Part shown: one piece after another, positions 5,502 through 63,383 of the stretch
Layout: each line of letters starts with the position of its first letter
Position numbering within the stretch: the stretch's first letter is position 1
NCBI GenBank assembly: GCA_045587125.1
Contig: JAZNBN010000020.1
Location: 1,796 to 65,795, forward strand
DNA: 64,000 bases
Origin: Candidatus Enterousia sp.
GTDB taxonomy: Bacteria; Pseudomonadota; Alphaproteobacteria; Rs-D84
Direction of reading: 5' to 3'
Made by a program: the position numbers and the translations under genes
The notes under the pieces: model-generated
What the model saw: only the letters and a program-made list of their open reading frames with translations
What the model was told of the DNA's origin: nothing
Database searches by the model: none

Positions 5502-5503
5502 GT

Positions 5504-7461: not shown

Positions 7462-7501
7462 ATATTCTTATAATAGAACATCTAAAACAAAAGGCAAGTT
7501 T

Positions 7502-13195: not shown

Positions 13196-13205
13196 GAAGT
13201 TTTTT

Positions 13206-13281: not shown

Positions 13282-13301
13282 ATTTTGATAAAAAAGTCTT
13301 C

Positions 13302-13388
13302 GGGGATATGGCGGAATGGTAGACGCTGAGGACTTAAAATCCTTTGGTCATTGCGACCGTGTGGGTTCGAGTCCCACTATCCCCACCA
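13302..13388 (+). tRNA. tRNA-Leu (anticodon TAA)
   Basis: GGGGATATGGCGGAATGGTAGACGC..., long variable arm, anticodon loop CTTAAAA, T-loop GTTCGAGTC, encoded CCA. Confidence 0.8.
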
Positions 13389-13392
13389 GAAA

Positions 13393-13421
13393 TTAAAAAT
13401 GCCCGAATGGGCATTTTTTTA
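13393..13421. terminator. bidirectional rho-independent terminator after the tRNA cluster
   Basis: Hairpin ATGCCCGaatGGGCAT followed by T-run. Confidence 0.6.
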
Positions 13422-14546: not shown

Positions 14547-14560
14547 GTTTAGTCCTTTTG

Positions 14561-14595
14561 TTGACAAATTATAATGTAAAACTATCGTTTGTCAA
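14561..14595 (-). promoter_or_regulatory. consensus sigma70-type promoter (TTGACA-N16-TATAAT, minus strand) bracketed by an 8-bp inverted repeat TTGACAAA...TTTGTCAA
   Basis: Minus-strand read TTGACAAACGATAGTTTTACATTATAATTTGTCAA lies just upstream of the start of the HTH-repeat gene. The inverted repeat spans -35 through +1. Confidence 0.5.
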
Positions 14596-14675
14596 TATGT
14601 ATTGTTGATAAAAAATAATGCTAGATAGATATATCATTTTGTGGTATAATGTAGTGCGTAAAGGAATGTAGAAAA

Positions 14676-15029
14676 ATGAAAAATATCGTGAAATTTTTAT
14701 TCTTTTCGGTTATTTTTATAGGGGTATCAGGTCCCACAATGGCAGAGGATACAACTGTACCTGCGGTTGTTGAAACAGAAACGGAAACAGAAACAGTGGT
14801 TGGGGATGTTCTGACGGTTACCAGTCAGGATTACGTTGACACATTGTTTGAAGAAACACATAGTGCGGCAAATATTACCAGGGATACATTGGATACGGCA
14901 CGTTTGAATGTCGGACGTGAGGCAAATACTGTTGCCGCCGGTGATGATGGACGTTTTGATACAATGGTAATTGGTCAGCCTGATAAAGAGGCAGAAGAAG
15001 GTCGTGTGTTGGTATGGGTTGAACCATAA
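14676..15029 (+). CDS. small secreted acidic protein, unknown function
   Basis: Signal peptide (MKNIVKFLFFSVIFIGVSGPTMA), ETETETET repeat. Preceded by extended -10 TGGTATAAT and an AAGGA ribosome-binding site. Confidence 0.5.
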   Translation: MKNIVKFLFFSVIFIGVSGPTMAEDTTVPAVVETETETETVVGDVLTVTSQDYVDTLFEETHSAANITRDTLDTARLNVGREANTVAAGDDGRFDTMVIGQPDKEAEEGRVLVWVEP

Positions 15030-15044
15030 AGACAAAAGGGTTTA

Positions 15045-15078
15045 TAAAAAACGTCTGATTGTATCAGACGTTTTTTTG
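15045..15078. terminator. bidirectional rho-independent terminator
   Basis: Hairpin AACGTCTGATtgtATCAGACGTT followed by T-run. Confidence 0.6.
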
Positions 15079-15091
15079 TTATATTAATTTT

Positions 15092-15409
15092 TTATCGCAA
15101 TCCTTTTGATCGACAACATCCAGATGCGGCGGCACGCCAATCAGAATATTCTTTGTTTGGGTTACGCAGGTCACGCCATGGTTGCCAACCACTGCAACGT
15201 TTGTTTGAACCTGTGCCAGAACATTTTGCATAACGACGCAGTGAACATGTTTGATTTGAAACTTTGCCTGTATCGGTTGTGCATTTTACAACAACATTTT
15301 GATTTTTTGCATCATTTTTACCCAATTCTTTGGACGATAAAACCTGATACGCGTTTGCGGTGCAAATTGTGCTGGTAGCCATAATAATTGCAAGTAGTAT
15401 TTTTTTCAT
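15092..15409 (-). CDS. small secreted cysteine-rich protein (105 aa), unknown function
   Basis: Signal peptide MKKILLAIIMATSTICTANA and 8 Cys in about 85 mature residues. Confidence 0.5.
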   Translation of the reverse strand: MKKILLAIIMATSTICTANAYQVLSSKELGKNDAKNQNVVVKCTTDTGKVSNQTCSLRRYAKCSGTGSNKRCSGWQPWRDLRNPNKEYSDWRAAASGCCRSKGLR

Positions 15410-15475
15410 ATTGGTGCCCCCTGCTTTGATTTCATAACTATTATAAAAAAATATCAGATAAAAAACAATGGGATT

Positions 15476-17140
15476 TTATTGGGGGTTGGTTGACCATGGT
15501 ATATCGTTCATAATCAGATAATATAATTCCGCATTATCTTGGCCTGGGTTACGTAATACGGGGCGTACAACAAATATATCGACATTACATGGTGTGTTTG
15601 TATTATCTTGGACTTCGGTTAAATCCTCATAAAACTTAGCAGCAAAATCCATGACTTGCAGATATGCGGCGTCGTCGTCGGTTGCATTGGTTGAATTGCC
15701 CATCCACATTAGCCACATACCATAATTTATGGTATCTTCTTGGCCAGCAATATCGTCTGCGGACAGCAATAACAAAGGCTTAAAATCGACACCACTGGTA
15801 AATTCGTCGGTACTGGTTTCTGTAAAGTCCCAAAACAGACCGCCAATTGTGCCCAATGCACCAAATGCCAGACTGCCTATGGTTTCTAATTTTGCCAATG
15901 CACCTGCATTTCTTAGTGTAGAATGAAACAGGTAATCACGAATTTGACCGGACAGTTTACTGCTGCGTCCCAGTTTGGCCGCTTTGTTTATTAATTTATT
16001 TCCTGAAAATGCTGCTTTGACACCCTTGCCTACACGTACAGTGCGTGCAAATATGTTTCCACGTTGTGCGATTTTGTGTAACGAGTTTACGCCACGCAGT
16101 TCATGTCTATATTTGTTTAATTCAGAATATGTTTTACTGGCTTCTTTATATTTTTTTACATCATCACTGTTTTCCAGTGTTTTTAATGTATCGTTTATTT
16201 TATTCAGTTCACGTTGTTTGTCTGCGATTTTTGCTGCGTCTTTTACTTTATCTAATGTTTTTATTTCATCGGCTAATTTAGCAGCTTGTCCGGATATCTT
16301 TATGTGATCACGGACAGCGTCAACGTTACGAAGTTGTTTTAATGTGGTTCGTAGACCTTTTAATGCACGTGCGGCACGTGGCGCCTTGGTGGCCCCCAAT
16401 ACAACTGTGCCAGTCCCAGCTGTTAATACAGTGATGGCGACATCCAGTGCTATTTCTGCATATCCAACCCATTCCAGGTTTTTATTGCCTGCAACGTAGT
16501 AATCGTTGGAATCATCTTTGATACTGACTGTTTGTATCATTGCACGATTTATTGCGTCTCCGTCACCTGTCCAGGCAGTTTCACTGGTGCAACTTAGACC
16601 ACGCGGATAAAAACTGTCGAAATTATCATTTATATATTTCATTGAAATTGTGTTGTTTTTATCAGGACCAACAAATTCATCCAGTGTGCCTGATTCAACA
16701 ACCATAATACCGTACCATGCAGGATCTGTATTTGTCCAAACAGTATCGCCATCTTCACCAATTTTTGGGTTGGGGTCACTGGACGGCAGACTTCGTTTTT
16801 GTCCCAATGTCAGCCGTTGTTTTAGAATTTTTGGTTGTGTTTCGTAATTTACAATTATTTCACGACCACCTGGGAAAGTGTATTTTATTGGTGCGAATTT
16901 AATTGTTTCTGTTTCCGGAACAGATGATATTTCTGGACAATTTAAAACCGATGATAAAACTTTGTGATTGTAAAAAGTTTTATATATCCATTCTTTGATT
17001 ACGTCTGGTTCGTCTTGTTCGGTAACTGTGTCGGCTGTTTGTGCCAAAGCGTTCGCAAAAATCTGTGAGGCACAAGGTGTGGCATTTGCGTTTGTAAATA
17101 TCATCAGAAAAAAAACAAAAAATATTAAATTTTTTTTCAT
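15476..17140 (-). CDS. secreted protein with central coiled-coil and glycine-zipper-like hydrophobic segments, unknown function
   Basis: Signal peptide MKKNLIFFVFFLMIFTNANA. Segments AITVLTAGTGTVVLGATKA and SLAFGALGTIGGLFW. Lys-rich coiled-coil. Confidence 0.6.
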   Translation of the reverse strand: MKKNLIFFVFFLMIFTNANATPCASQIFANALAQTADTVTEQDEPDVIKEWIYKTFYNHKVLSSVLNCPEISSVPETETIKFAPIKYTFPGGREIIVNYETQPKILKQRLTLGQKRSLPSSDPNPKIGEDGDTVWTNTDPAWYGIMVVESGTLDEFVGPDKNNTISMKYINDNFDSFYPRGLSCTSETAWTGDGDAINRAMIQTVSIKDDSNDYYVAGNKNLEWVGYAEIALDVAITVLTAGTGTVVLGATKAPRAARALKGLRTTLKQLRNVDAVRDHIKISGQAAKLADEIKTLDKVKDAAKIADKQRELNKINDTLKTLENSDDVKKYKEASKTYSELNKYRHELRGVNSLHKIAQRGNIFARTVRVGKGVKAAFSGNKLINKAAKLGRSSKLSGQIRDYLFHSTLRNAGALAKLETIGSLAFGALGTIGGLFWDFTETSTDEFTSGVDFKPLLLLSADDIAGQEDTINYGMWLMWMGNSTNATDDDAAYLQVMDFAAKFYEDLTEVQDNTNTPCNVDIFVVRPVLRNPGQDNAELYYLIMNDIPWSTNPQ

Positions 17141-18480
17141 TGTATTAAACTGTCGCATTGTTGTTGCAAAATAGTTATTTCATTTTGAATGCGTTGTATT
17201 AATGCAGGGTATGGGTCGTTTGGAACAGAACTGTCCCCGTTTATTAGACGCCAATTATAGCAAAAATTTTGTGTGTCTGGGATATATTCCACATATGCAT
17301 TTGCAGGTGGTTCACCGTTACAATATCTGGTGACGCATTCTGGCGCCCATGCATCATCTTTCCATAATCCATCCCACCATGATGCAGGTTTGTCCGAACC
17401 ACCCTGTAAACATTGACGAACCCCCGGACGTTTTACAGTCATTTTGCCATCTGATGATTCAACACCACAAAACATATATTCACCTATTTGTGCCTGGCGT
17501 TGACCCTTGTTAAAGGCGGTATTACAACATGTAAATAGACCAGTTTCTGGATCGTGCAAACAATCTGTTTCCGAGAATAATTGTGAACCTGCGATTACTG
17601 TACCAAGGACTGTGCCAACAATTGCACCAACACCATTACCAATTACAGGTACAGCGGTACCAATTGCCATACCTGTTGTTAAACCGCCAACTGCACCTGC
17701 AAAAAGATTGCCTACGCTGTGTTTGTCTTTGCCTGTGACGGTAGAGGCAACAGTCAAAACGCCCCCAACCCCTGCAACAGCTGTACCAACTTTTGCGGCT
17801 GTACTCATACCTTTCCAACCCTGGGGTGTAGTGTTTGCAGGTGCCTGATTAGTTGATTGGTTTGTGCCAGCACCTGTTTGAGTTGCAGCTTGATTCGTAC
17901 CTGCGCCCGTTTGAGTCGCTGCTTGATTTGTACCTGCACCCGTTTGAGTCGCTGCTTGATTCGTACCAGCACCTGTTTGAGTCGCTGCTTGATTCGTACC
18001 TGCGCCAGTATTTGTCCCATTTGGTGGTGTTGCTGATGACGGTGTTGTTCCACTTGGAAATGCTGTGCCGGATGTCGTAACATTAGGAGTTGTTGGTGTT
18101 GGCGCAGATGTTGTGGCAAATTGATTCGTACCTGCGCCAGTATTTGTACCATTTGGTGGTGTTGCTGATGACGTTGTTGTCCAACTTGGAAATGCTGTGC
18201 CGGATGTCGTAACATTAGGAGTTGTTGATGTTGGCGCAGATGTTGTGGCAAATGGTGTAATTGGAATTGGTGTAGAAGTTGGTGGCATATTTCTGATGTG
18301 GTCTGGCATTCCTGTGGTGCTAACGAATTGACCATTTACTGCGTTACGAAATCTGTTGTCTGGTGTTCTTATCAGTTGTACATCTGGATCATTCCATGCG
18401 GCACATAATGCGCTGTTTGTTGTCATCGCAACAAAACAAGAAAGCGCAATATTAAAAAGAAGATATTTTTTGTGTATCAT
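17137..18480 (-). CDS. secreted Thr/Pro-rich repeat protein with Gly-rich hydrophobic region and Cys-rich C-terminal domain
   Basis: Signal peptide. Tandem peptide repeats (QAATQTGAGTN x5 and a ~43-aa unit x2). GxxxG-rich segment AVGGLTTGMAIGTAVPVIGNGVGAIVGTVLG. C-terminal domain with about 10 Cys. Overlaps flanking genes by 4 nt. Confidence 0.6.
   Translation of the reverse strand: MIHKKYLLFNIALSCFVAMTTNSALCAAWNDPDVQLIRTPDNRFRNAVNGQFVSTTGMPDHIRNMPPTSTPIPITPFATTSAPTSTTPNVTTSGTAFPSWTTTSSATPPNGTNTGAGTNQFATTSAPTPTTPNVTTSGTAFPSGTTPSSATPPNGTNTGAGTNQAATQTGAGTNQAATQTGAGTNQAATQTGAGTNQAATQTGAGTNQSTNQAPANTTPQGWKGMSTAAKVGTAVAGVGGVLTVASTVTGKDKHSVGNLFAGAVGGLTTGMAIGTAVPVIGNGVGAIVGTVLGTVIAGSQLFSETDCLHDPETGLFTCCNTAFNKGQRQAQIGEYMFCGVESSDGKMTVKRPGVRQCLQGGSDKPASWWDGLWKDDAWAPECVTRYCNGEPPANAYVEYIPDTQNFCYNWRLINGDSSVPNDPYPALIQRIQNEITILQQQCDSLIQ
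17861..18250. repeat. nested in-frame tandem DNA repeats (about 33 bp x5 followed by about 130 bp x2) inside the Thr/Pro-rich gene
   Basis: Direct repeats visible in the sequence (e.g. cctgtttgagtcgctgcttgattcgtacctgcgcc recurring). The second block is duplicated nearly identically at about 17998 and 18128. Confidence 0.75.
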
Positions 18481-19367
18481 AAATATGTTCCCTTTAATTT
18501 GCATTTTGATAATTCAATATTTTGTTGCTGACATTGTTGCAGTGTTTTCAAATCTTCAACCAATATTTGATATTTTGCATTGGAATTTGTGCAATAAGCA
18601 TTTTTTTGTTGTTCAACTCGCTTGCGACGTGTAAGAAATTCTTCCTCTGATTCTATTTCAATTTCTGTGTATGCACGACTGTCTTTATATGGTTCATAGC
18701 CCTTGGTTTCGTTTGCGATGCGTTCCGCAAATGACAAATCTGCGTATGTGGCTGGAAAACTGGCACGTTGCAGGCCAACGTTGTTTGCACCATTTTGGTT
18801 TTGTAATGATTCCAGTTCGTTTTTGCGTTCCTGCATTTCTTTGGCCCATTCAGGAACATTTGGGGCAAATGGATTTGGAATGTTTATTCCCGAATCGTAT
18901 GCGTTCGGATTTGGTGCGGTTGCATTTGGAAAAGCAACATGCCCAGACGGACCAGATGTTGTATAGTTTGCCTTGTATTGTTCAAATGCACTGTCCAAAT
19001 ATCCAGAACATGACGATATATAATTGCCATCAGATATTCGTGACAGTTGTAATAACACAGCAGGTCTAATGTCGTTTAATGTGGTGCTGGCACAATTGTT
19101 TAACAGTGCACACTGGGAAATAATTAAATTATAAACGATTGTTTGACAATCTTCTGAATCAATCTTGGGACCAGTGGCGTATACAGGTTGTGGCATACGC
19201 ATGTTGTATGGCCCATTTGGATCGTATCCAGGTTGGGTCGAATATTTTTGTACGTTTTGAATAACGCCGTATTGTGAAAATGGTGATGGAGATGAGGCAC
19301 GTGACGAATATGTGCAAAAAATGCAACCTGTCAATAATGCTAAAATACTGGGGTTATTCACTCTCAT
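18477..19367 (-). CDS. lipoprotein, unknown function
   Basis: Signal peptide with lipobox LLTGC. Ser/Pro-rich linker. Acidic coiled C-terminus. Confidence 0.55.
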   Translation of the reverse strand: MRVNNPSILALLTGCIFCTYSSRASSPSPFSQYGVIQNVQKYSTQPGYDPNGPYNMRMPQPVYATGPKIDSEDCQTIVYNLIISQCALLNNCASTTLNDIRPAVLLQLSRISDGNYISSCSGYLDSAFEQYKANYTTSGPSGHVAFPNATAPNPNAYDSGINIPNPFAPNVPEWAKEMQERKNELESLQNQNGANNVGLQRASFPATYADLSFAERIANETKGYEPYKDSRAYTEIEIESEEEFLTRRKRVEQQKNAYCTNSNAKYQILVEDLKTLQQCQQQNIELSKCKLKGTYL

Positions 19368-19398
19368 CTTTCCTTAATTGATTCCCTGTTTTGATTTA

Positions 19399-19869
19399 TT
19401 ATAACAAAAATATGTTTGTAATCAAAGATAAAAATCCCCCAAATAAAAAGAAAGGTGCAAATGGAATAAATTTTTGCCTTTTTATGTTTGCCCAAATTGC
19501 ACCTGTGATACATGCAATGATCAATGCGGTTGCCATGCCGGTTATCCCCAACCAAATGCCACCTACCCCCATTAATTTTATGTCACCCATGCCAATTGGA
19601 GATTCTGAATTTGGATTTTTTTTGCGTAAAATAATGTCAAATATAAAACCGATTAAAACGGACATTGTGTACCCAAATATTGCGCCAATAACCGCGTCTG
19701 TAATTGGAATTGGAAATGCGTAAAATGTAGTTAATGTCAGACCGCACAGCATCAGTGGAAATAAATATGCATCTGGAATAATTCTGCGGCGAAAATCAGC
19801 AATTGAAATCAAAACAGAACATAATATGGCCAATATTAATAAAAATATAAAAAATATGTATGAAATCAT
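19399..19869 (-). CDS. A24-family prepilin peptidase, short CpaA/TadV type (no methyltransferase domain)
   Basis: 156 aa polytopic protein with the two catalytic Asp contexts (ADFRRRIIPD and GMGDIKLMG). Confidence 0.7.
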   Translation of the reverse strand: MISYIFFIFLLILAILCSVLISIADFRRRIIPDAYLFPLMLCGLTLTTFYAFPIPITDAVIGAIFGYTMSVLIGFIFDIILRKKNPNSESPIGMGDIKLMGVGGIWLGITGMATALIIACITGAIWANIKRQKFIPFAPFFLFGGFLSLITNIFLL

Positions 19870-19942
19870 GTTTTTCTCCCTTGCGTTTCGAATCGGATTT
19901 ATGATAGAATCTTATTATAATGTATAACAAAGGTTTTGTAAA

Positions 19943-20590
19943 ATGAGTAAAGGTTGGGATAACGCAACGCTTAAAAAACTGAAAGCATTAACGTGCAAGG
20001 GGTTATCTACTTCTGAAATTGGTAAGCGTTTGGGGATGTCTAAAAACGCCATTGTTGGCAAACTGAATCGTCTGGGTTGGAATGCCAAGGCTGGTGGTGC
20101 CGCGGCGGCTGAGGTTAAAGATGTTGAAACAAAAAAGACAGCCACAGCAAAAAATACAAAGACAACCAAAGTGGTCAAGGTTGCAAAGTCTGTTAAGAAA
20201 ACAGCAACGTCAAAGGTTGCGGCAACTAAAAAAACTGTTAAGGCACCTAAGGTCGCTGCGACAAAGAAGGTAACAGAAAAGGCTGTTAAAACAACCAAGG
20301 GTGCAACAAAGACAAAAAGTGTAAAAGTGGCGACACCCAAGGGTGCGGATAAAAAGTCTGCTAAGGGAAAAGATGTAAAATCCAGTGCTAAAAATTTGGC
20401 GGTTCATCAACGTATTATTCAACATTCTTTGGAAATGGCGAATTTAAAACCGAATCAGTGCCGTTGGCCAATTGGGGATCCGGATTCTGAACATTTTCAT
20501 TTTTGTGGTGAAACGGTATTTGTTGGTAAACCTTATTGCTATGAACATTGTAAACAGGCGTATCAGTTTACCCCGCCAAAAAAGAAATAA
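19943..20590 (+). CDS. gcrA: cell-cycle transcriptional regulator GcrA with a long Lys/Ala/Thr-rich linker
   Basis: N-terminal DNA-binding domain (W..A.L..L...GLS.SEIGKRLGMSKNAIVGKLNRLG) and C-terminal GcrA signature (CRWPIGDP...FCGE...GKPYC.EHC..AY). Confidence 0.8.
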   Translation: MSKGWDNATLKKLKALTCKGLSTSEIGKRLGMSKNAIVGKLNRLGWNAKAGGAAAAEVKDVETKKTATAKNTKTTKVVKVAKSVKKTATSKVAATKKTVKAPKVAATKKVTEKAVKTTKGATKTKSVKVATPKGADKKSAKGKDVKSSAKNLAVHQRIIQHSLEMANLKPNQCRWPIGDPDSEHFHFCGETVFVGKPYCYEHCKQAYQFTPPKKK

Positions 20591-20609
20591 AAAAAGGGAC
20601 GCATAGCGT

Positions 20610-22859
20610 ATGCAAAACGAGAGAGAAAATATTTTTCAGCCACTGACCGCGATTGATTATGATATCGCAGGTAATTCTTTTCGGGCGTATTATGATTCGG
20701 ATAATAAACTGGTTTTTGTTATTGATTTCGTAACCAATGCCATTAAGCCTAATGTTTTGTTGGTTATAAATCCTGATGGTGACAGAAAGTGGGACGATAT
20801 TTTAATGAACGATTACGGGGTTGATTTAGAAACCGTTCGTCCAAAGCAAGACAATAAATATCAAAAGTTGGATATAGAGTATACCGGTTTGTCTGTTTAT
20901 GATAATTTAATTCAGGTCTATAATAATGGTGATGATATATCAGACGAAATTTCGTATTTAGATGCATTTCATCATGATGCGGCGTATCGTGCCGCCCAAG
21001 AACGCTTTGAAGCCGCAGAAATGACGGCGGACCGTACCCGTGAAACAATTGACAGAACGATGGGGGTTATTGCAGAGTTGCAGGCACGTTTAAAAGTTCT
21101 GCGTTCCAAATTGGCTTTGCAACGTAAATCTATTGGTAAAGAACCAACCAAGAAATCTGCGTCCAAGATTTTGCGTACTGAATCACAAATAGACGCAACA
21201 AATGAAAAACTGATGCGTGCAAAAAAACGTCTGACAAATGCAAAACGCAGGTTGGTCGTTGCCGAAGAGGATTCAGAGGTTGCACGTTCAATACTAAATA
21301 AATTAGGTGGTGTTTCAGAATTGCCTGCAAAACCGTTAAACACAGCGGTCGCGGTGAAACAAAACCCACCTGTCCCGGTAAAAAAACAAGATATCGAATA
21401 TACAGATACAACAATAGAGGCTGAAAAAATGGCTGATAATAACGAAGAAGTAAAACCTTTATTTGATACAGATCCTGAAATCATAGATGAAGATATTGCT
21501 TTTAAACCAATCGATTTTGGTTCAGGGTCAGATAGTAATGATGACGAATATCAAACAAATGTTCAAGTCGAAGAACAGCCCACGGTATCTTTTGAACCTA
21601 TCCCTGGGATTCCAGATGTGCCAAGTGCGGTTGAAACACCTGCGATTCAGCCTGTGGAATTTACACCACCGACCAGTTTTGAATCGTTTGAACCTTCTGA
21701 AAATACAGGAAATGAATATGGTATGCCTGGGGCATTTACCCCTGCCCCGATTGTGGAAGAAAATACTAATGAATATGAAACGTTGACTGGCTGGGGTGAT
21801 GACAATGCTGTCGTGCCAGATGTGAACACTTCATTTGGTAACACAGTAACATCGGAAACTTTGGCCGAAGAATTCCAAATGCCGATTACACCTGCACCGG
21901 TTGCCCCTGTGACACCTGTGGTTGATAATGAAAAAACTTTTTCAGAAATAGAACCTGCACCGGTGGATTCTGGTATGCGTCCCGTTTCCCCAATAACACC
22001 AGATGTTCCAGTTGCACCGTCTGATACAGATACGAATATAACAATTCAACGGTCCAGACCTTCGTTTGTTTACTATATTTTATTGATTTTATTGATTGGG
22101 TTGTCTGTATTTACTTTGTGGATGTATCAAAAATCTACAAATGGCAATTTGCCTGAATTGGGTGCGAAAACTCAGGTTGAAGAAACCATAACAGAACCTG
22201 TTGTGGCAGAACCAGAAGTACAGATTGTTGAACCTGTTGTGGCAGAACCTGTGGTTGTAGAACCGGAATACGTTGAACCAGAACCGGTTATAGAAGAACC
22301 AGTTGTGGAACCAGAACCCGTCATAGAAGAACCGGTCGTTGAACCAGAACCTGTTACAGAAGAACCAGTTGTGGAACCAGAACCAGAATTTGTGCCAGAT
22401 ACAACATCTGCATCTGTTATAAAGTCTTTGCGTTATACCGAAGAAGTGCCAGAACCTGTTGTTTTGGAAACGGAAGAAGAAATATTGGCTAAAAAGCCTG
22501 CGTATGGTGTTTCGCAAAACGAACAAATGTTTGTTTCAGAATATGAATCTGATGCAGATATGAATACAGAAATGGATTTTGTTGCATATGATACAGGTGT
22601 TATTACATATGATGAACCATCGGTTGTTACAACAACAACGTATGAATCAGAAGAAATTATTGCATACAATGAACCTGATGTTTATGCGGACGATGTTTTT
22701 GTAGAAGAAGTTGTAGAAGAAGATATTGAAATGTGTGCAGATGGCGGTTACCCAAGTCCAGAAGGTTGTTGTGCAGGGGAAGTTTATACGCATGTTGGAA
22801 ACGGCGAATATGTATGTTGTGTTCAATCAACAGGTGAATGTTTCCCGCCAATGCGTTAA
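20610..22859 (+). CDS. acidic coiled-coil/repeat protein with one transmembrane segment and a Cys-rich C-terminus, unknown function
   Basis: 749 aa. TM segment FVYYILLILLIGLSVFTLWMY. (EPVVEPEPV[IT]E)n repeats. C-terminal CADGGYPSPEGCCAGE...CCVQSTGEC. Confidence 0.55.
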   Translation: MQNERENIFQPLTAIDYDIAGNSFRAYYDSDNKLVFVIDFVTNAIKPNVLLVINPDGDRKWDDILMNDYGVDLETVRPKQDNKYQKLDIEYTGLSVYDNLIQVYNNGDDISDEISYLDAFHHDAAYRAAQERFEAAEMTADRTRETIDRTMGVIAELQARLKVLRSKLALQRKSIGKEPTKKSASKILRTESQIDATNEKLMRAKKRLTNAKRRLVVAEEDSEVARSILNKLGGVSELPAKPLNTAVAVKQNPPVPVKKQDIEYTDTTIEAEKMADNNEEVKPLFDTDPEIIDEDIAFKPIDFGSGSDSNDDEYQTNVQVEEQPTVSFEPIPGIPDVPSAVETPAIQPVEFTPPTSFESFEPSENTGNEYGMPGAFTPAPIVEENTNEYETLTGWGDDNAVVPDVNTSFGNTVTSETLAEEFQMPITPAPVAPVTPVVDNEKTFSEIEPAPVDSGMRPVSPITPDVPVAPSDTDTNITIQRSRPSFVYYILLILLIGLSVFTLWMYQKSTNGNLPELGAKTQVEETITEPVVAEPEVQIVEPVVAEPVVVEPEYVEPEPVIEEPVVEPEPVIEEPVVEPEPVTEEPVVEPEPEFVPDTTSASVIKSLRYTEEVPEPVVLETEEEILAKKPAYGVSQNEQMFVSEYESDADMNTEMDFVAYDTGVITYDEPSVVTTTTYESEEIIAYNEPDVYADDVFVEEVVEEDIEMCADGGYPSPEGCCAGEVYTHVGNGEYVCCVQSTGECFPPMR
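22193..22400. repeat. in-frame tandem repeats of about 30 bp encoding EPVVEPEPVIE units
   Basis: Repeated gaaccagttgtggaaccagaaccc... units visible in the sequence. Confidence 0.6.
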
Positions 22860-22878
22860 AATAAATATGGCTTAGTAT

Positions 22879-25227
22879 ATGAGAGTGATATTAAGTTTTT
22901 TTGCTGTGTTGTTGTTCATGTCTTTTGATATGGGGGCGTATGCTGCCCTTAATGCATCGGGAAATAGCAGTTCACCTGCATGTGCGGGTAAAGATAAAGC
23001 GGTTACATTAACGGATCGTTGCCCCAGTGTTCCACAGTTGAAATTGCTTGGGAATCAATCTTTAAAAGATAACGAATTTTTATACGCTAGTTACAGTACA
23101 TACGAATCTTTGCAAAAAGAATATAATAAAAGACCTGCGGCGTGCAGAACATATTTTAGTACCAATCAAGCCAATGGTGTTTATGAGTGTGATAAAGATT
23201 ATTGTGGCAGATATACTGTATTGATAATGGATAAAAATCACGGTTTTAATGGAAAGACAGTGGCTGATAAACGTGCATATATATGTGATACTAATGTTGA
23301 TGATAGATGGATTCCATATTCACATAACATATCTGAATGCACAAAAGGTCAGATGGATACAAAGTCTTATACAAAAATCAAGGGACTGGACGGTTTACAA
23401 TACAGATATAAAAAAGATGCTACAAGAATTACTTCTATATGTCAGGTTCCTCAGGATAAATCAAATGTTCAACAAACAGGCGATAATACGGTATCTAAAA
23501 CCGGTACTCAGGGGGCGACACGTTCGGAAACAAAACCAGATGGTGAAACAACAGAAGATAAAACGCCCAAAAAAAATACGGTAGAGAAACCACAACCAGA
23601 ACAATCAACAAATAAAACACAACATGAAAATGTGGGTGATGAAAAAATTGGTCAGCCTTGTACGACAGAAAATGCAAAAAAGGCTGTTTGGCAAAAAATT
23701 GATAAAGAAATCAAATGTGTTGCCAAAGAATGTAATCAGGACAGATATTTGGTTGTGAATAGTAAAGGTGAATCTCAAGGGTACTGTATTGCGAATACTT
23801 GCAAGGCACCAAAAACATTAAATATTATTGACGGAACAAAAACTGATAAAAGGTGCGTTGACCCCGCTGCATCGGAAATTGCAGAAGAAACAATCGAAGA
23901 AGATGTTGAAGAAGAATTACCAACTGTGCCATTCAGACCAGATTTACAAATTAACCAGCCATGTGCACAAGGTTTTTTGACGATATTAAACGCAAAGACC
24001 GGTAAATATGCTAAGCATGCAGGTTCTGATGATATTTATTGTGATATAACAGAATGTAATGAAAATTTTGTGAAAGTATCACGAAATCAAGGTGAAACGT
24101 ATGATGATTATAATGGAGTGAATTTGTACGAAATATGTGAATGTCCTAGTGAAACTCATACTATAAATAATGAAGGTAAATGTGTTGCAAATACGAATGG
24201 TGTGCCTGCAACGGATAGAACACCTGCTGAAGCTAATGTTAGTATAACAGTACAAGGCACGATTAACGATAGCGCAGGTAATTGTCTTGCGAATGCAGAG
24301 ATTGTATTTCCAGATGGTGCATATATAAATCAAGAGGGTTGTAACTTTACTGTTGGATTACAAGAATCTGGCGAAATTACTTTTTCATTTGATGGTTATG
24401 AATCTGTATCCAAGAGTTATAGTGAAAGTGTATATAATGAAATAATTGTTTTGACAAAGTCTGCAACAGATGTTGCGGTTGATGAAGGTAACGAAGCAGT
24501 TGTGCCAGATGAAGGTTTAGAAGAACAGGATAAAGAACCAATTGATAAAGAAGACGATAAAATCCAAGAATTACGTGATAAAGCTGATGCGGCACATGAA
24601 CGCGAAAATTCAATGGCGAATAAAATGTTGGGTGCGGCCGGTATCGGTGCGACCGGTATTGGTGGAATGATGCTGATGCAGGGATTGTCTGAACAAAAGG
24701 CGGATAACAATGCCCAGGAACAAATGCGCGCATATTTGTCCACATTTATGTGCAGATTTGGTGATGGCCGTGCCACGGGCGGTGAATCTGATATTGAATT
24801 GCCGGGTGCAAACGCATTATTACCACTTTATGCCGAATATGTAACATTGGCAAATGAAACCAAGGCTATGAAGACAGAACTGGATTTAAAACCAGGTATA
24901 GAATCTGAAAGTATCTTGGATAACGCAACATCTGGTTTGTATGATGATGAAAATACTGGCAAAACATCTGGTGCATTTGCTTCATTGGCACGTGCATTAC
25001 AAAACCCAGATGGCGAAGATGCGAAAAAATGGGCCGAACAAACTGAAAAAGCATCTAAGAACATAAAAACAGGTGCGATTACTGCGGGTGCCGGTGCGGT
25101 TGGCGGATTGGTTGGTCATATTACTGAAAGTGCGGTTTATAAAAAGAAGGCTGAAAAAGGTAATGAAGATTCAGACGATGAATCTGAAGATAAAAAATAT
25201 AAACCTAAAAAACGTGGAAGAAGTTAA
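22879..25227 (+). CDS. secreted cysteine-rich protein (782 aa) with C-terminal Gly-zipper hydrophobic segment and Lys/Glu-rich tail
   Basis: Signal peptide MRVILSFFAVLLFMSFDMGAYA. About 50 Cys. Segment MLGAAGIGATGIGGMMLMQGL. No recognisable enzymatic motif. Confidence 0.55.
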   Translation: MRVILSFFAVLLFMSFDMGAYAALNASGNSSSPACAGKDKAVTLTDRCPSVPQLKLLGNQSLKDNEFLYASYSTYESLQKEYNKRPAACRTYFSTNQANGVYECDKDYCGRYTVLIMDKNHGFNGKTVADKRAYICDTNVDDRWIPYSHNISECTKGQMDTKSYTKIKGLDGLQYRYKKDATRITSICQVPQDKSNVQQTGDNTVSKTGTQGATRSETKPDGETTEDKTPKKNTVEKPQPEQSTNKTQHENVGDEKIGQPCTTENAKKAVWQKIDKEIKCVAKECNQDRYLVVNSKGESQGYCIANTCKAPKTLNIIDGTKTDKRCVDPAASEIAEETIEEDVEEELPTVPFRPDLQINQPCAQGFLTILNAKTGKYAKHAGSDDIYCDITECNENFVKVSRNQGETYDDYNGVNLYEICECPSETHTINNEGKCVANTNGVPATDRTPAEANVSITVQGTINDSAGNCLANAEIVFPDGAYINQEGCNFTVGLQESGEITFSFDGYESVSKSYSESVYNEIIVLTKSATDVAVDEGNEAVVPDEGLEEQDKEPIDKEDDKIQELRDKADAAHERENSMANKMLGAAGIGATGIGGMMLMQGLSEQKADNNAQEQMRAYLSTFMCRFGDGRATGGESDIELPGANALLPLYAEYVTLANETKAMKTELDLKPGIESESILDNATSGLYDDENTGKTSGAFASLARALQNPDGEDAKKWAEQTEKASKNIKTGAITAGAGAVGGLVGHITESAVYKKKAEKGNEDSDDESEDKKYKPKKRGRS

Positions 25228-57865: not shown

Positions 57866-59026
57866 TTGGAAATGGCAAAAAATGATAAGCAAAATATGGG
57901 TAAAACTAAACGTTCCACAGATGATTTAATCAATGATGCAATTAATAAACAAAACGATTGGTTGGAAAATCGTCGTGAATATACTCGTGGATTTTTAAAG
58001 TCTTTGAATATGTTTGCGAAAAAGTCTGACAAGAAATCTGAAAAAGTATTGTCTGCAAAGACAGAAGAACAACCTGTTGCGGAAAAGAAATCACGCGGTG
58101 TATTGTCTTTTTGGTTCCCAATGTTGTGTGTGGTTGTTTGTGTGATAATTGCTGCTTGGACTGTGTTTGTACGCCCTATTCCACAGCCACGTATTGCAAT
58201 TGTTCCTGATGTACCGGCGCCAGTTGTAAAAAAAGTTGTACATAATATTAAAATGCCTGAATTTGATATTGTGCGTATTGATAAAACAGGTCATGTGATT
58301 ATCGCAGGTCGTTGGTCTCCGAATAAAAATATTTCTGTGGTTGTAAATGGTAAAATCATTGCAACAGAATTAACAAATGAATATGGCGAATTTGCATATT
58401 CTTCTGTACGTCCATGGGATGCAGGTAATTATACAATCGCACTGTTGGGCGCAGATCCAGAAATTAAATCAAACGATAAAGTATTCGTATATGTTTCTGG
58501 ACGTGGCGCACATAATTCTGTGTCTTTGTTGATGACCAAAGATGGCAGTACTGTATTACAGGCCCCATCTGTGTTGTATGATGGTGATTTAGTGGTCAGC
58601 AAAATAGACTATTTATCAGGTGGCCGTGTTGTTGTAACAGGTAATGCGTTGCCCAGATTGCGTGTGTCTTTGACATTAAATGGTAAATATATGGGTTTTG
58701 CACGTGTATCAGATCATAAACATTTTGGTTTGGGTGCAGATATTGGCGAATTAGAACCAGGTAAAGAATACGAATTAGCTATTCGTTTACATGACGGTGA
58801 TGGACGTACAATATCACATGTTGCACGTAAATTCGTTATGCCAGAAATGACAGGCGATGAAGATACTTATTACACAGTACGTCGTGGCGATTGTTTGTGG
58901 ATTATTGCACGTAACTTTATGCGCCGTGGTATTTTGTTCAGCATTATTGCAGAACGTAATAATATCAAAAATCCTGATTTGATTTTCCCAAAGCAAAGAT
59001 TACAAATCCCAGTCGGCGCAAAATAA
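57866..59026 (+). CDS. membrane-anchored periplasmic protein with C-terminal LysM domain
   Basis: Cytoplasmic Lys-rich N-terminus, TM (FWFPMLCVVVCVIIAAWTVFV), beta-rich repeats, C-terminal LysM (YYTVRRGDCLWIIARNF...NPDLIFPKQRLQIP). Confidence 0.65.
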   Translation: MEMAKNDKQNMGKTKRSTDDLINDAINKQNDWLENRREYTRGFLKSLNMFAKKSDKKSEKVLSAKTEEQPVAEKKSRGVLSFWFPMLCVVVCVIIAAWTVFVRPIPQPRIAIVPDVPAPVVKKVVHNIKMPEFDIVRIDKTGHVIIAGRWSPNKNISVVVNGKIIATELTNEYGEFAYSSVRPWDAGNYTIALLGADPEIKSNDKVFVYVSGRGAHNSVSLLMTKDGSTVLQAPSVLYDGDLVVSKIDYLSGGRVVVTGNALPRLRVSLTLNGKYMGFARVSDHKHFGLGADIGELEPGKEYELAIRLHDGDGRTISHVARKFVMPEMTGDEDTYYTVRRGDCLWIIARNFMRRGILFSIIAERNNIKNPDLIFPKQRLQIPVGAK

Positions 59027-59044: not shown

Positions 59045-60772
59045 ATGGCAGAAAAATTTACACTGGCATTGTCAGAACAAGAATTATTAGAACGTACAAA
59101 TCCAGCTGCCTTTACACCATATAAAATGTTGGGGGCGGATGCACCGGAATACATGGCACTGTCTGAAAATGATAAAAAGGCACTGAAACATTTGGTTCGT
59201 GCGTCCGATATCATAGATCGTGTGGCGTTGCGAATGGATCATCATTATAACATTCGATTTGAAAACTTTTTAACCCAAAAAATCAAGTTGGGGGACGAAC
59301 GTGCAAAGATGACTATGGATTTATTTCGTGGACAACGTGGTATATTTGGTCATGAAAGAAATGGTAATACTGTTGCATTGGCGTCTGGTGTACGGGCCTG
59401 TCCAGGGCGCGGGTTTTATCCATATGATTTATCTGTGCCTGAATTTCATGATATTTTAATTGATATGTTGAACAATGGCCAAGATGCCCAGGTCAAAGAT
59501 ATATTAAATCAAAGAACGGTTGTTAAACGTCATGGTGCACAGTTAGTGGCACAAGATTATACAGTCGCATTTCAAGACTATTTTCGTACGGCGGCGGTAT
59601 GTTTAGAGGTTGCTGCACATCATGCAACAGATTTGAACTTTAAAGAGTATTTAAAAATGCAATCTGCGGCATTAACAAATAATGCACCTTTGTTAGATTG
59701 TCGGGCTGATAAAAAATGGGCAACGTTGCAAAGCGGGCCATTGGAATTTACGCTGGGGCGTGAAAGTTATGATGATGCGATGACACCAACTGTGTTAAAT
59801 AATCCAAAATTAAAAGCAATGTTGGACGAACGTGGAATTGTGCCCTATGCAAAAGACAGTTTGGGTGCAACAGTTGGTATTATTGATAAATCCGGAACTG
59901 ATTATCTGTTGGAAATAAAAGATTATTTACCAATACTGGCGGCGCAAATGCCACGTAAATCTGAATATGAACAGAATATAACCCAAGATACCAAACAAAC
60001 AATGGTTGATGTTGATTTGGTCGCGGTCAGTGGACATTATGCCGCATATCGTGGCGGAATATCGTTGGCATTTAATTTGCCGAATGCAGATAAATTAGCG
60101 GTACAAACTGGTGGTGGACACAGAACTGTTTATTTAAAGCAAATGCGTCAGTCTAAATATGCGACGGCCCTGCCTGAAAAATTAAACGCATTGTTGGCAC
60201 CAGCGTTCCATAAATATTTTTCTGTGTCTGCATTGCATGATTTTACGATACTGCATGAAAATATGCATTCGTTGGGGCCGAAAAAAGGTTTGGAATCGTT
60301 GGGCGAATATAAAAATATTATAGAAGAACACAAGGCCGATGCAGGATCGGTTGCGATGCTGGATATATTGGTGCATTGCGGATTCTTTACGCCACAGCAA
60401 AGGGAAGAAATAATAACGTCATGGTTGGTTGCGTATTTGTATCCGGCGGCAAATTTCAAAACCGCACATTCAAAGCGTAATATTATGCAACATAACATGT
60501 TATTTGAAAACGATGCAATTAAATTAGATAACGCGGGTCGTATGGTGATTGATTTTAATCGTGTAACGGAACGTGGTTATAAAATGTTGTCAGATGCGAT
60601 TGATATTCAATTGTCTGGCAATCCAGATATGGCACGCAAGTATATTGAAAAATATGCGGTTTGGTCGCCCCAATTACAGGTGTTGGGCAAAAAATTGTCT
60701 GCGGTTGATAAACAACGTAATTCATATATTGTTGAACCGTTGGCGGATATGTTACGAAATAAAACCAGATAA
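59045..60772 (+). CDS. DPP III-like (M49-type) zinc metallopeptidase family protein
   Basis: HExxH-type motif HENMHSLGP, followed about 25 residues later by EEHKADAGSV (cf. M49 EExR/KAE/D second zinc-ligand motif); 575 aa. Confidence 0.6.
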   Translation: MAEKFTLALSEQELLERTNPAAFTPYKMLGADAPEYMALSENDKKALKHLVRASDIIDRVALRMDHHYNIRFENFLTQKIKLGDERAKMTMDLFRGQRGIFGHERNGNTVALASGVRACPGRGFYPYDLSVPEFHDILIDMLNNGQDAQVKDILNQRTVVKRHGAQLVAQDYTVAFQDYFRTAAVCLEVAAHHATDLNFKEYLKMQSAALTNNAPLLDCRADKKWATLQSGPLEFTLGRESYDDAMTPTVLNNPKLKAMLDERGIVPYAKDSLGATVGIIDKSGTDYLLEIKDYLPILAAQMPRKSEYEQNITQDTKQTMVDVDLVAVSGHYAAYRGGISLAFNLPNADKLAVQTGGGHRTVYLKQMRQSKYATALPEKLNALLAPAFHKYFSVSALHDFTILHENMHSLGPKKGLESLGEYKNIIEEHKADAGSVAMLDILVHCGFFTPQQREEIITSWLVAYLYPAANFKTAHSKRNIMQHNMLFENDAIKLDNAGRMVIDFNRVTERGYKMLSDAIDIQLSGNPDMARKYIEKYAVWSPQLQVLGKKLSAVDKQRNSYIVEPLADMLRNKTR

Positions 60773-60800
60773 AAAATGTCCCAAATGGGACATTTTTTTA
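60771..60800. terminator. bidirectional rho-independent terminator
   Basis: Hairpin ATGTCCCaaaTGGGACAT flanked by A-run and T-run. Confidence 0.6.
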
Positions 60801-62165
60801 TTCAACCAATTTCCAACCCGTAAATGTATAACCTGGTTTAACTGGGTCAGCTGGGATTGCAATACCTTGATCATAAAAACACATGCCTTGGAGACCCATT
60901 TCACCGTTGTCAGGATTCCAATTAATATTTATCTTGTTGTTTTTACAATAGGTTATTTCGCCGTATGCTTCTGCGATTGAACTACTTGATGTCCAGAACG
61001 GAGTAAAACCAACGTCGTCAACAAAATCGAATTCTTCGGCAGACATTGGAGATTTGATCCATATATTATTAAATGGTATAGACTTATAACTGGCTATAAG
61101 CAGTAAAGTCCAATTATTTAACAATTCTGGATTATTCATAATTTTTGCGCTAGATTCTGTACTTACCATATTCAACACAAATTCAATTTGTTCTTGTTCT
61201 GTCAAATCATTTGGTATATTTATACTACCATTAGATATACCGTTTAGTATTTCTGTGTCGGCACTTGGTATCATTAAAGCAACCTGTCTTATCCACAGAT
61301 TATTTCCAGATTCTTCGTGCACAAAATTTTGGTTATAAGATATGCATTGTTTATGTTTGTCACAGTTTGTCATCGGCAAATCTGTACCATCCTGTTCGTT
61401 TTTAATAAGTTCATATAAAAACGCTTTCATGTCCGTTCTAAAAAACAAAACTTGTCCTGGTTTTAAAACTTGGCAAATGGATGAGTGTTCAGTCCATGGA
61501 TAGGAATTTCCTTGTATTCCGCGACCGTCCCAAGAACATGCAAACATTCCGACCAAATCTTCCTCTAAAACATCTGGTGTTTCGGGGTCATCTGGTTTAA
61601 ATATGTCTCTATTGGCGATTTCTTCGGCGGATATAGTTATTTTGGTATAACCGGCTTCGCATTCAAAATCTATGCTACAAAACTGTGGTATAGTATCACA
61701 TGTATTTTGACCATAAAACTGTTTACCATTACTGGTTGTTGTGCCATACGTACAATTTTGCGAATTTTCTGGGCATGCGTTTTGTATGCATGCTAATTCA
61801 CAGCCCATGTAACATTCGGATTCGGCGGTGGCGGCGGTGTCTGATGTATAATCGGCGGGGCATGCGTTTTTACTGTTATTTGCCTCGACTGTGAACACGC
61901 CGCCGGGACAATACGACCCGGTGGGGCATTCGGTGCAGTTCAGTGTCGTTTCATCCAGGTATTGCCCCGCCACGCATTCGTAACTGTTCAGCGACCATGT
62001 CGCAATTGTATTTGCCGTCGCATTATTGTCCGACACGCCCAGGACGTCAACCGTACATGTACCCGCCCCGCCCGTAATTTTTTTGTCTGTGGTGGCCGTA
62101 TCGTCCGCGAATGCGCTGTACACGGTCATAATAAATGCACTGGATAAAAACAAAAACTTTTTCAT
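60798..62165 (-). CDS. secreted cysteine-rich protein with ephrin-receptor-like (GCC2/GCC3-type) Cys repeats and a C-terminal Listeria-Bacteroides-type repeat
   Basis: Signal peptide MKKFLFLSSAFIMTVYSAFA. Repeats YECVAGQYLDETTLNCTECPTGSYCPGG...NACPADYTSD. C-terminal motif PGYTFTGWKL. Confidence 0.6.
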   Translation of the reverse strand: MKKFLFLSSAFIMTVYSAFADDTATTDKKITGGAGTCTVDVLGVSDNNATANTIATWSLNSYECVAGQYLDETTLNCTECPTGSYCPGGVFTVEANNSKNACPADYTSDTAATAESECYMGCELACIQNACPENSQNCTYGTTTSNGKQFYGQNTCDTIPQFCSIDFECEAGYTKITISAEEIANRDIFKPDDPETPDVLEEDLVGMFACSWDGRGIQGNSYPWTEHSSICQVLKPGQVLFFRTDMKAFLYELIKNEQDGTDLPMTNCDKHKQCISYNQNFVHEESGNNLWIRQVALMIPSADTEILNGISNGSINIPNDLTEQEQIEFVLNMVSTESSAKIMNNPELLNNWTLLLIASYKSIPFNNIWIKSPMSAEEFDFVDDVGFTPFWTSSSSIAEAYGEITYCKNNKININWNPDNGEMGLQGMCFYDQGIAIPADPVKPGYTFTGWKLVE

Positions 62166-62486
62166 GTGTGTTCTCCCCTTTCTTTGTAGTAAATATAAAA
62201 ACCGTCACTAAGTTTGACGGTCGGGGAGTTCACAAATCATTTCAACATTGATTCTGATGCTTTCGGGTTGTCCCTGTTGTATAACAATCAGCCCCCCGAC
62301 TGCGTATCAGTCAGGGATAATTAACGATGCAAAAAACATGGGTAAATATTGGACTTACGATGTTTGTATTTTGCACCGGTTGAAATAGGCTTGTGACAGC
62401 CCCGAACCGACATCCCTGTCAGTTCAATGTTTATTCTACTAAAATTTGGGATTTATTACAAGGGGATTTTTATTACTGTATTTTGT

Positions 62487-62516
62487 TGACAAATAAACGT
62501 CTTGTGTAATAATATA
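62487..62516 (+). promoter_or_regulatory. consensus sigma70-type promoter (TTGACA-N17/18-TAATAT) for the radical SAM gene
   Basis: ttgacaaataaacgtcttgtgtaataatat lies about 20 nt upstream of the AAGG ribosome-binding site and the ATG at 62538. Confidence 0.5.
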
Positions 62517-62537
62517 CTATATAAGGTATTAATTATT

Positions 62538-63383
62538 ATGAATCACGGTTGTAATAAAATTAGTTTTGCAATTAAAAACACAAATTGGTGCAATTTGCGT
62601 TGTGCACACTGTTGTGAAAACAGCAGTCCCAATGTTGTGCCAAATATTATGCCACTGAAATACGTTGAAAAATATATTGCTGAATTTAACGCAATGCCAT
62701 TGCCAAAGTGGGAACATATGGTTTTTACCGGTGGTGAAGCGATGGCACCCTATTTCCACAAAAGAATGGAATATATACCACAATGTCTGGATATTGCGTC
62801 ATCGTATGGCATGGTGCCATTTGTAAAAACAAATGGTGTTTGGGGTATGAATGATGAATTGCGTCACCGTATTTTGCGTGACTTTGCCAATGTTGCATAC
62901 AAAAACGACAAGATGATGTCTATGGATATTTCTGTGGATGCGTTTCATAATAATAACAATGCAGTTGTTCGTATTTTAAATGACGTTGTTCGCAGTGATT
63001 ATTTAGCACCGGCTGTACGTATTTCTTTGGTTGGTTTAAATGATACGAAATCTCGTGTGGTGTTTACGCATTTGTTGAACGAATTGCGTGCCAGTGGTTT
63101 GGATGTTGATATTGGTGATGACGGTAATTTAGTGCTGTGGGTGCCGTATGTGCGTGGTGTATCTGTGTGTTATGATTTAGGGGCAAATATCAACAAAATC
63201 GGACGTGCCGCAGAAAATAATTTAGGGCAAATTGTGCCAGATGGTCGTCCCCATATATCAGATGGTCATTGTTTGGAAATAGATAATAATGACGTTGCAA
63301 AATTAAACTATAAATATGCGACACCTGTTGCCGGCCGTCCTATGTTTGATGTTGTAAAAGAATTAATGTCAAAGGTAAGATAA
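62538..63383 (+). CDS. small radical SAM enzyme (about 281 aa), subfamily unassigned
   Basis: CX3CX2C cluster near the N-terminus (NWCNLRCAHCCEN). GGE-type SAM motif (FTGGEAMAPY). Start chosen at MNHGCNK inside ORF 62502..63383, because the upstream ATG lies inside the promoter. Confidence 0.7.
   Translation: MNHGCNKISFAIKNTNWCNLRCAHCCENSSPNVVPNIMPLKYVEKYIAEFNAMPLPKWEHMVFTGGEAMAPYFHKRMEYIPQCLDIASSYGMVPFVKTNGVWGMNDELRHRILRDFANVAYKNDKMMSMDISVDAFHNNNNAVVRILNDVVRSDYLAPAVRISLVGLNDTKSRVVFTHLLNELRASGLDVDIGDDGNLVLWVPYVRGVSVCYDLGANINKIGRAAENNLGQIVPDGRPHISDGHCLEIDNNDVAKLNYKYATPVAGRPMFDVVKELMSKVR

Follow-up and report, generated by a model that had tools for sequence, protein, structure and literature searches.

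In this work we have analysed a stretch of 64,000 nucleotides (the window) from Candidatus Enterousia sp. (contig JAZNBN010000020.1 of assembly GCA_045587125.1), and in particular a gene on its minus strand that codes for a predicted secreted, Cys-rich protein of 455 amino acids (aa), together with the leader RNA that precedes it. The window is a normal chromosomal segment, with LeuRS, MurJ, SecA, DnaE, DnaK, PFK, the RNase P RNA and tRNAs. A previous sequence-only reading had described the protein as a secreted chimera, in which eukaryote-like ephrin-receptor/TNFR-type Cys repeats are joined to a Listeria-Bacteroides-type repeat, of the kind expected in host-associated bacteria that mimic host surface domains. 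The open reading frame (ORF) is real, with an ATG start and the ribosome-binding site AAGGGGAG, and the motifs claimed for it are present. What that reading overlooked is a multigene family, a hypervariable core and a leader RNA.

By its sequence the protein is Sec-targeted and Cys-rich. The N-terminus (MKKFLFLSSAFIMTVYSAFA, followed by DD) reads as a Sec signal peptide of the usual kind, with AxA at the cleavage site, and is conserved across the family, in agreement with the secretion that had been predicted. The protein has 20 Cys, 14 of them within residues 37-169, and the conservation of Cys positions would fit the presence of disulfides. Four parts can be distinguished in the mature protein: a conserved N-terminal segment, a Cys-rich N-module, a central domain and a C-terminal module (Table 1). 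In the model of the full-length protein the mean predicted local distance difference test score (pLDDT) is 71; residues 1-57 score below 50 despite the high conservation of segment 21-57 (residues 26-75 are 83-90% identical between paralogs). Such a protein may function in binding, either on the cell surface or extracellularly.

A search of 5.8 billion proteins returned 256 homologs at E <= 1e-3, of which the named ones come from uncultured Alphaproteobacteria and are annotated as 'hypothetical' or as 'InlB B-repeat-containing protein'. Residues 1 to ~175 and 407-455 are common to nearly all of them, while the middle is divergent or replaced and, in family members of 750-790 aa, is accompanied by a second Cys module. 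A scan that covered one genome per species located at least 18 family loci, several of them at contig ends, in a single metagenome-assembled genome (MAG), Candidatus Enterousia sp. GCA_045601765.1, and relatives that are more distant in other Enterousia MAGs; tblastn detected no second family copy in the 64-kb window. Eighteen copies of ~1.4 kb, with their leaders, would amount to roughly 3% of the genome if its size is typical for the genus. That the organism is host-associated, as had been proposed, is borne out by its relatives, Candidatus Enterousia of the order Rs-D84. These are fermentative gut bacteria with genomes of 0.75-1.0 Mb, predicted to be obligate symbionts or parasites; Rs-D84 genomes are under 1 Mb and are without the standard sugar, amino-acid and peptide transporters (PMC12306168).

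The identity profile along the protein, calculated with the 13 complete paralogs of GCA_045601765.1, shows where the family is constant and where it is not. Amino acid identity is 83-90% for residues 26-125, about 50-57% for residues 126-175 and 75-84% for residues 426-455; in the central domain (residues 176-400) it falls to 9-26%, with a nucleotide identity of 30-44%. Thus, to judge from the alignments, every family member has the same signal peptide, Cys-rich N-module and C-terminal half Flg_new repeat of ~50 residues, around a core that has diverged almost to randomness among paralogs. The core is nevertheless modelled with confidence (pLDDT ~85-90 for residues 200-380), as a beta-sheet followed by a helical bundle, and this predicted structure has no fold match: Foldseek gave none for the central domain in the PDB (best E 0.19, template modelling (TM) score <= 0.11) nor in BFVD. 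Among PDB sequences no match was obtained with the single window protein or with the central-domain family profile, and the profile of this divergent domain, run against the 5.8 billion proteins, recovered just one of its own members, so that the latter search was uninformative.

The C-terminal module carries the PGYTFTGWKL motif of the Listeria-Bacteroides repeat (Flg_new, PF09479), as had been noted. Flg_new repeats have ~65 residues and a beta-grasp fold, and usually occur in tandem copies. In the window protein there is a single, truncated half-repeat: Flg_new aligns with residues 414-452 over profile positions 3-39 of 65, with 21.6 bits (E 2.4e-4) against a curated cut-off of 27 bits, and the protein (ending in ...PGYTFTGWKLVE) stops 3 residues past the matched part, so that no full repeat is present. 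The sole NCBIfam match, TIGR02543, is weak (15.3 bits, cut-off 20.95). The half-repeat is nevertheless a recurrent feature of the family, since 53 of 56 members match Flg_new at E <= 0.01 (best E 2.2e-7) and relatives pass the cut-off, for example P0121 (2,701 aa) with 28.1 bits (P-numbers denote the homologous proteins, and L-numbers the other loci, that were compared). The family profile of the module also matches, among PDB sequences, the InlB B-repeat 2y5p (residues 13-42 of 74, E 3.9e-3). The module contains an invariant Cys pair, C407 and C429, and the protein stops after GWKLVE. Of the 38 representative proteins with this module, 26 have it at most 12 residues from the C-terminus, which suggests a scaffold or sorting role. 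The tails of the paralogs alternate between the GWKLVE end and a short Thr-rich extension (...GWKLVETTTTE, ...EETTTE). The idea of a split domain, in which the half-repeat and the conserved mature N-terminus (...NTIATW) would together form one complete Flg_new, was rejected: with 28.0 bits the N/C chimera brings no real gain over a shuffled control (26.5 bits; C-module alone, 25.6), and the mature N-terminal segment alone gives no match.

The N-module bears the CxxGxY...CxxCPxGxYCxGG motif that had been interpreted as a series of Cys repeats (here C64-VAGQY...C77-TE-C80-PTGSYC86-PGG). The motif is indeed present, in one unit of Ephrin_rec_like length and not in several repeats. As with Flg_new, the Pfam families concerned are matched and recur in the family, and the scores of the window protein lie under the curated cut-offs. 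Ephrin_rec_like (PF07699, cut-off 23.1 bits) aligns with residues 67-118 over its full profile, positions 1-48, with 16.3 bits (E 8.6e-3), and is matched by 17 of the 56 family members at E <= 0.01 (best 1.1e-3), a distant relative, P0133, reaching 23.2 bits. The bacterial family DUF7631 (PF24634, cut-off 27 bits) fits better: it aligns with residues 74-90 over positions 3-19 of 50, with 20.7 bits (E 5.8e-4), it is matched by 49 of the 56 members, and two relatives pass its cut-off, P0121 with 57 bits and P0057 with 29.9 bits. We found no paper that mentions DUF7631.

Is this module of eukaryotic (ephrin-receptor/TNFR-like) origin, so that a protein mimicking the host surface could engage host receptors or ligands? 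The alignment over all 48 positions of Ephrin_rec_like and the life of the organism in animal guts would agree with this idea, as would the only match at E <= 0.01 that a profile of 16 N-module sequences finds among PDB sequences, namely thyroglobulin residues 1455-1545 (E 9e-4), which we take to be its GCC2_GCC3-type region; no ephrin receptor is among these matches. The N-module model (pLDDT 75.6) gives weak Foldseek matches in the PDB that include ELAPOR1, DR4/DR5 and EGFR/HER2, but all of them are non-significant (E >= 3.8, TM <= 0.24). Against a eukaryotic origin, the profile finds 719 proteins at E <= 1e-3 among 1.84 billion representative proteins, and the similarity to eukaryotic domains is marginal, being confined to the thyroglobulin match. 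The top hits among the 719 are prokaryote-type giants with up to 36 matched stretches each, on metagenome contigs of up to 200 kb, to which the sources give no functional name (one is a 'hypothetical protein'); other proteins of the set have prepilin-type N-termini. P0121 has the same half Flg_new at its extreme C-terminus. Convergence is moreover plausible for a motif this short, made up largely of Cys, Gly and Pro. The N-module motif is thus of the GCC2_GCC3 or growth-factor-receptor Cys-rich type, a common bacterial extracellular building block, and neither host mimicry nor a eukaryotic origin is supported; nothing points to a recent one.

Upstream of the family genes, the ~300 nucleotides (nt) that precede the coding sequence are 75-94% identical among paralogs. 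The region upstream of the window gene is 90.6% identical to that of L005 over 276 nt, while their proteins are only ~45% identical. Leaders of ~190-240 nt were delimited in the window and in L002-L019, L031, L034, L035 and L037, and a -35/-10 pair is present in all 24 leaders trimmed for the analysis. They fall into type A (the window, L005, L010, L015 and L035) and type B (most others). Of the 31 leader matches obtained with nhmmer, 25 lie directly upstream of family genes that have their own signal peptide; the rest are mostly before other ORFs with a signal peptide, often Cys-rich, which suggests that this class of leader covers a wider group of secreted proteins. Matches outside the family are located at L005:23-209 (+), L014:647-787 (-), L010:2093-2372 (-), L010:10227-10415 (+) and L001:20963-21096 (-); the genes concerned code for products with a signal peptide (a 414-aa Cys-rich, a 121-aa lipoprotein-like and a 154-aa Cys-rich protein, and one starting GVKKQLFLLC) and, in one case, for a 56-aa product without it. 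A scan of JGI metagenomes for leaders gave 6 loci, one of them close.

Comparative analysis shows a conserved secondary structure, supported by covariation, for this predicted RNA. Type-B leaders share a layout of a 5' hairpin (H1), a long closing helix (P1), inner hairpins including H4, and a terminator directly after P1. RNAalifold, run on 19 type-B leaders, predicted 47 pairs, 26 of them with compensatory double changes; one P1 pair is CG in 7 leaders, AU in 6, GC in 5 and UA in 1. The fraction of paired cells is 92.3% (81.6% in shuffles) and the covariation score 0.384 (0.193 in shuffles, at most 0.107 in slid registers), and none of 500 shuffles reached the observed value on any of the five measures, a control that overstates significance, as 13 of the 19 leaders come from one MAG and the sequences are related. 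A shortened covariance model built from type B only finds the type-A leader of the window (62195-62401, full length, 31.3 bits, E 6e-7) and also the other type-A copies, and compensatory changes in P1 are already visible among the five type-A copies. The minimum free energy of the window leader is -85.1 kcal/mol, compared with -56.1 +/- 4.4 for shuffles (z = -6.6).

Two other explanations for the conservation of this region were considered and rejected. The leader is non-coding, because other type-A copies carry 1-nt indels that interrupt the 30-codon ORF of the window leader; in type B, many copies have GCG in place of the possible start, a GUG after a Shine-Dalgarno (SD)-like AGGAGG. The G.U pairs at conserved positions, which occur on the sense strand only, favour an RNA over an inverted repeat or recombination site in the DNA.

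The leader also has the predicted design of an intrinsic terminator with a mutually exclusive antiterminator. Two partners are available to the 3' arm of H4: the 5' arm of the same hairpin, and a second copy of this 5' arm further downstream, in which the last part of the P1 3' strand is continued by the initial 3-6 nt of the terminator stem. Pairing with the downstream copy gives an antiterminator helix of 8-12 bp, which overlaps P1 and the terminator arm. The three switch segments change together across leader variants, in a three-way co-variation (Table 1). In the window, the fold with P1 and terminator is favoured by 17 kcal/mol over the fold in which the antiterminator is forced, which argues that the default state would be OFF. 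The H4 3' arm contains a perfect SD-like AGGAGG in type B (GGUCAGGAGG) and GGGGG in type A (62300-62292), and its partners contain CCUCC, resembling an anti-SD sequence; no conserved start codon follows AGGAGG. This segment could serve for pairing with the ribosome or with a 16S-like sequence, or could simply provide strong pairing. Rfam 15 contains no family that matches the leader at threshold. In type-A leaders, sRNA-Xcc1 (RF02221) is matched over its full length by the 3' half (36.0 bits and E 1e-4 in the window, 36.6 bits in L036), under the gathering score of 53, and type-B leaders do not match it.

Table 1. Features of the gene, its predicted product and its leader RNA (positions in the window)
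Feature	Position	Strand	Basis
Promoter-like TTGTAA-17 nt-TAGAAT	62433..62461	-	promoter scan; cross-paralog conservation begins exactly here
Structured 5' leader RNA, type A, 236 nt	62197..62432	-	fold, covariation, covariance model
Leader hairpin H1	62425-62404	-	fold
Leader long closing helix P1	62403-62379 with 62246-62223	-	fold
Leader inner hairpins	62378-62325	-	fold
Leader H4	62317-62293	-	fold
H4 3' arm GUCGGGGGG, alternative partner of CUCCCCGAC, giving the antiterminator	62300-62292	-	co-variation
Leader H5	62291-62254	-	fold
Switch segment CUCCCCGAC: end of P1 3' strand and first 3 nt of terminator stem	62220..62228	-	alternative pairing
Leader intrinsic terminator (GACCGUCA...UGACGGUU and U-run), ~30 nt 5' of start codon	62197..62222	-	terminator scan, fold
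Switch segments, type A including the window: UCCCUGAC / GUCGGGGGG / CUCCCCGAC			
Switch segments, main type B: CUCCUGACC / GGUCAGGAGG / CCUCCUGACC			
Switch segments, variant type B: CUCCAACC / GGUUGGAGG / CCUCCAACC			
Ribosome-binding site AAGGGGAG, 7 nt 5' of ATG	62173..62180	-	sequence
Coding sequence, 455 aa and stop codon, expanded secreted family member	60798..62165	-	ORF list; ATG start
Signal peptide, residues 1-20, MKKFLFLSSAFIMTVYSAFA, cut before DD	62106..62165	-	sequence reading; kept across family
Conserved N-terminal segment of mature protein, residues 21-57 (...TGGAGTCTVDVLGVSDNNATANTIATW)	61995..62105	-	alignment
Cys-rich N-module, residues 58-175, 13 conserved Cys	61641..61994	-	sub-cut-off Pfam, thyroglobulin match
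Ephrin_rec_like/DUF7631-type unit (one), residues 67-118	61812-61967	-	Pfam, below cut-off
Hypervariable central domain, residues 176-405	60951..61640	-	paralog identity 9-26%; predicted beta-sheet and helical bundle
Conserved C-terminal module, residues 406-455	60801..60950	-	Pfam profile positions 3-39/65, InlB 2y5p match
Terminator-like hairpin at gene 3' end, before convergent 575-aa ORF	60771..60798	-	terminator scan

We propose, and consider reasonably likely, that these genes form a modular, disulfide-rich secreted family, massively expanded in Candidatus Enterousia, with variable binding cores and a shared switch leader. The constant ends would act as a scaffold, or as a targeting or anchoring device, and the variable core would be the binding surface, each paralog recognising a different ligand on the host, on partner cells or among nutrients. 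In the default fold of the leader, P1 would close the multi-stem junction and the terminator would form just before the ribosome-binding site. A signal (a small molecule, a protein or an RNA) would favour the alternative helix between the H4 3' arm and the P1/terminator junction, the terminator would be dissolved and transcription would read into the gene; as the leader is shared, many family members might be switched together by one signal. A more specific version, which we hold only tentatively, is that the leader is a new riboswitch class or a factor-dependent attenuator that gates, in a co-ordinated way, a hypervariable secreted repertoire in a gut bacterium obligately dependent on a partner, and that the cores represent a new fold recognising host or partner cells.

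Several observations speak against parts of this proposal. The closest ortholog of the window protein, with 93% identity, has a nearly identical core, which means that the variation is between paralogs and not between strains. Types A and B of the leader do not have the same junction sequences, which speaks against a single conserved pocket for a small molecule. No leader could be detected for some of the family genes (P0086 in L032/L033, P0025 in L037, and L020), and the leaders that support the structure are related to one another, as stated above. Regarding the protein, no annotated homolog supports a function for the core, whose binding role is a proposal; export past the periplasm is a prediction, and no secretion or anchoring system has been tied to the C-terminal module.

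A different explanation for the hypervariable core would be antigenic or phase variation, in which the conserved 5' (leader and N-module) and 3' blocks recombine and shuffle cores into an expressed copy. The conserved DNA flanks (78-85% identity between paralogs in the N-module and the high identity upstream) around unalignable cores fit this scheme, and so do the many dispersed copies, several of them at contig ends as expected for repeats, and the existence of members with swapped or duplicated middles. However, a signal peptide and a stop codon of its own were found in each of the complete copies that were examined, and in most of them a promoter and a leader as well; among these complete copies no silent promoterless cassette was seen. 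Rapid switching is not apparent, since the 93% identical ortholog keeps its core; in the conserved blocks, identity at third codon positions reaches only 0.56-0.68, which argues against recent gene conversion, and no recombinase is consistently adjacent to the paralogs. We therefore regard this explanation as unlikely.

Nutrient capture is similarly improbable. Under this explanation, in an organism that lacks standard sugar, amino-acid and peptide transporters, periplasmic or secreted binding proteins with varied specificities could be produced under a metabolite-sensing leader. The large size of the family, the distinct core of each member and a shared leader that is OFF by default could all be accommodated. 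However, the central domain bears no likeness to any solute-binding fold (Foldseek against the PDB, family profile against PDB sequences), no transporter gene was found next to the family genes, and a long Cys-rich stalk, as well as giant relatives with many repeats, would rather be expected of a surface or adhesive protein. Host mimicry by a Cys module acquired from eukaryotes has, in view of the sub-cut-off profiles, the better fit of DUF7631 and the non-significant fold matches described above, little to recommend it.

The surroundings of the gene deserve some comment. The convergent neighbour (59045-60772, plus strand) is an ORF of 575 aa with no Pfam match at E <= 0.01; it contains an HExxH-like motif (ILHENMHSLGP) and could be an unrecognised metallopeptidase. 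At L001, in an Enterousia MAG, the neighbour of a 67% identical homolog is an M13 peptidase. A gene for a small radical-SAM protein (62502-63383, plus strand) adjoins the family gene in the window, and a radical-SAM gene is also found two genes from the 67% homolog (L001:13856-14710, minus strand); their orientation differs between the two loci, and this may be loose synteny or chance. Two genes from the family member in the window there is a 386-aa protein with a C-terminal LysM domain (57866-59026, plus strand; E 9e-12), which is probably associated with the cell wall. Positions 10529-25227 hold a run of large ORFs (847, 382, 560, 455, 296, 749 and 782 aa) with no Pfam family at thresholds, and ORFs of 812, 438, 331 and 314 aa elsewhere in the window are also without a Pfam family, a high fraction of unannotatable proteins for a reduced genome. 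On other contigs, L018 starts with an 84-nt near-perfect hairpin (9-92) that gives spurious sub-threshold Rfam microRNA matches (mir-548, 67 bits) and may be a palindromic repeat or an assembly artefact, and L031, a different metagenome contig, carries a prophage-like block (737-7672; terminase, capsid, nozzle and hydrolase) ~2.3 kb upstream of a family gene.

What could be the importance of this family? The Rs-D84 bacteria, Candidatus Enterousia among them, are widespread in human and animal guts, are uncultured and are thought to depend on other cells. The devotion of ~3% of a genome, if of typical size, to one secreted family makes that family a strong candidate for the molecular interface with a host or partner, and the leader RNA would offer a concrete handle on the signal that turns this interface on. 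The leader is in itself a well-supported candidate for a structured cis-regulatory RNA missing from Rfam, and the central domain, with a confident model that matches no fold, is a target for structure determination.

Compared with known protein families, the window protein has in common with Ephrin_rec_like/GCC2_GCC3 and DUF7631 the CxxCPxGxYCxGG core motif, and it covers the Ephrin_rec_like profile in full; it differs in scoring under both cut-offs, in covering DUF7631 only partially, and, with respect to the giant relatives, in having a single unit instead of up to 36 stretches. Its last 40 residues align with the first part of the Flg_new or Listeria-Bacteroides repeat (the InlB B-repeat) and contain the P.dP..GYtFtGW signature, in keeping with the InlB label that NCBI gives to its relatives, but the copy is single, truncated by a stop right after GW and sub-cut-off, and this family adds the invariant Cys pair and always places the copy at the extreme C-terminus. 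Anaplasma Msp2/P44 are surface antigens with conserved ends and a hypervariable core, in which silent cassettes feed one expression site. As in that system, many paralogs with conserved end blocks around a hypervariable middle occur in a small alphaproteobacterial genome; here, however, no sequence homology with Msp2/P44 was detected, and the copies mostly have their own promoters and leaders. Each ingredient (secreted Cys-repeat/Flg_new proteins, multigene variable surface families, attenuating leaders) is known in kind. Their combination here (a truncated terminal half-repeat, a core matching no fold, an expansion within a genome of less than a megabase and an uncatalogued leader RNA) has no description in Pfam, in Rfam or in the literature that could be searched.

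As for the RNA, sRNA-Xcc1 is an integron-associated small RNA of Xanthomonas, whereas here the similar sequence is part of the 5' leader of alphaproteobacterial protein genes and not a stand-alone small RNA. The leader differs from known riboswitches in that it belongs to no Rfam family at threshold and in that its junctions are not the same in types A and B. It resembles the terminator/antiterminator riboswitches in having a P1-closed multi-stem domain directly before a terminator and a mutually exclusive alternative helix. In Clostridioides difficile, riboswitches for cyclic di-GMP (c-di-GMP) lie upstream of adhesin genes, and the leader described here likewise lies upstream of genes for predicted secreted or surface proteins.

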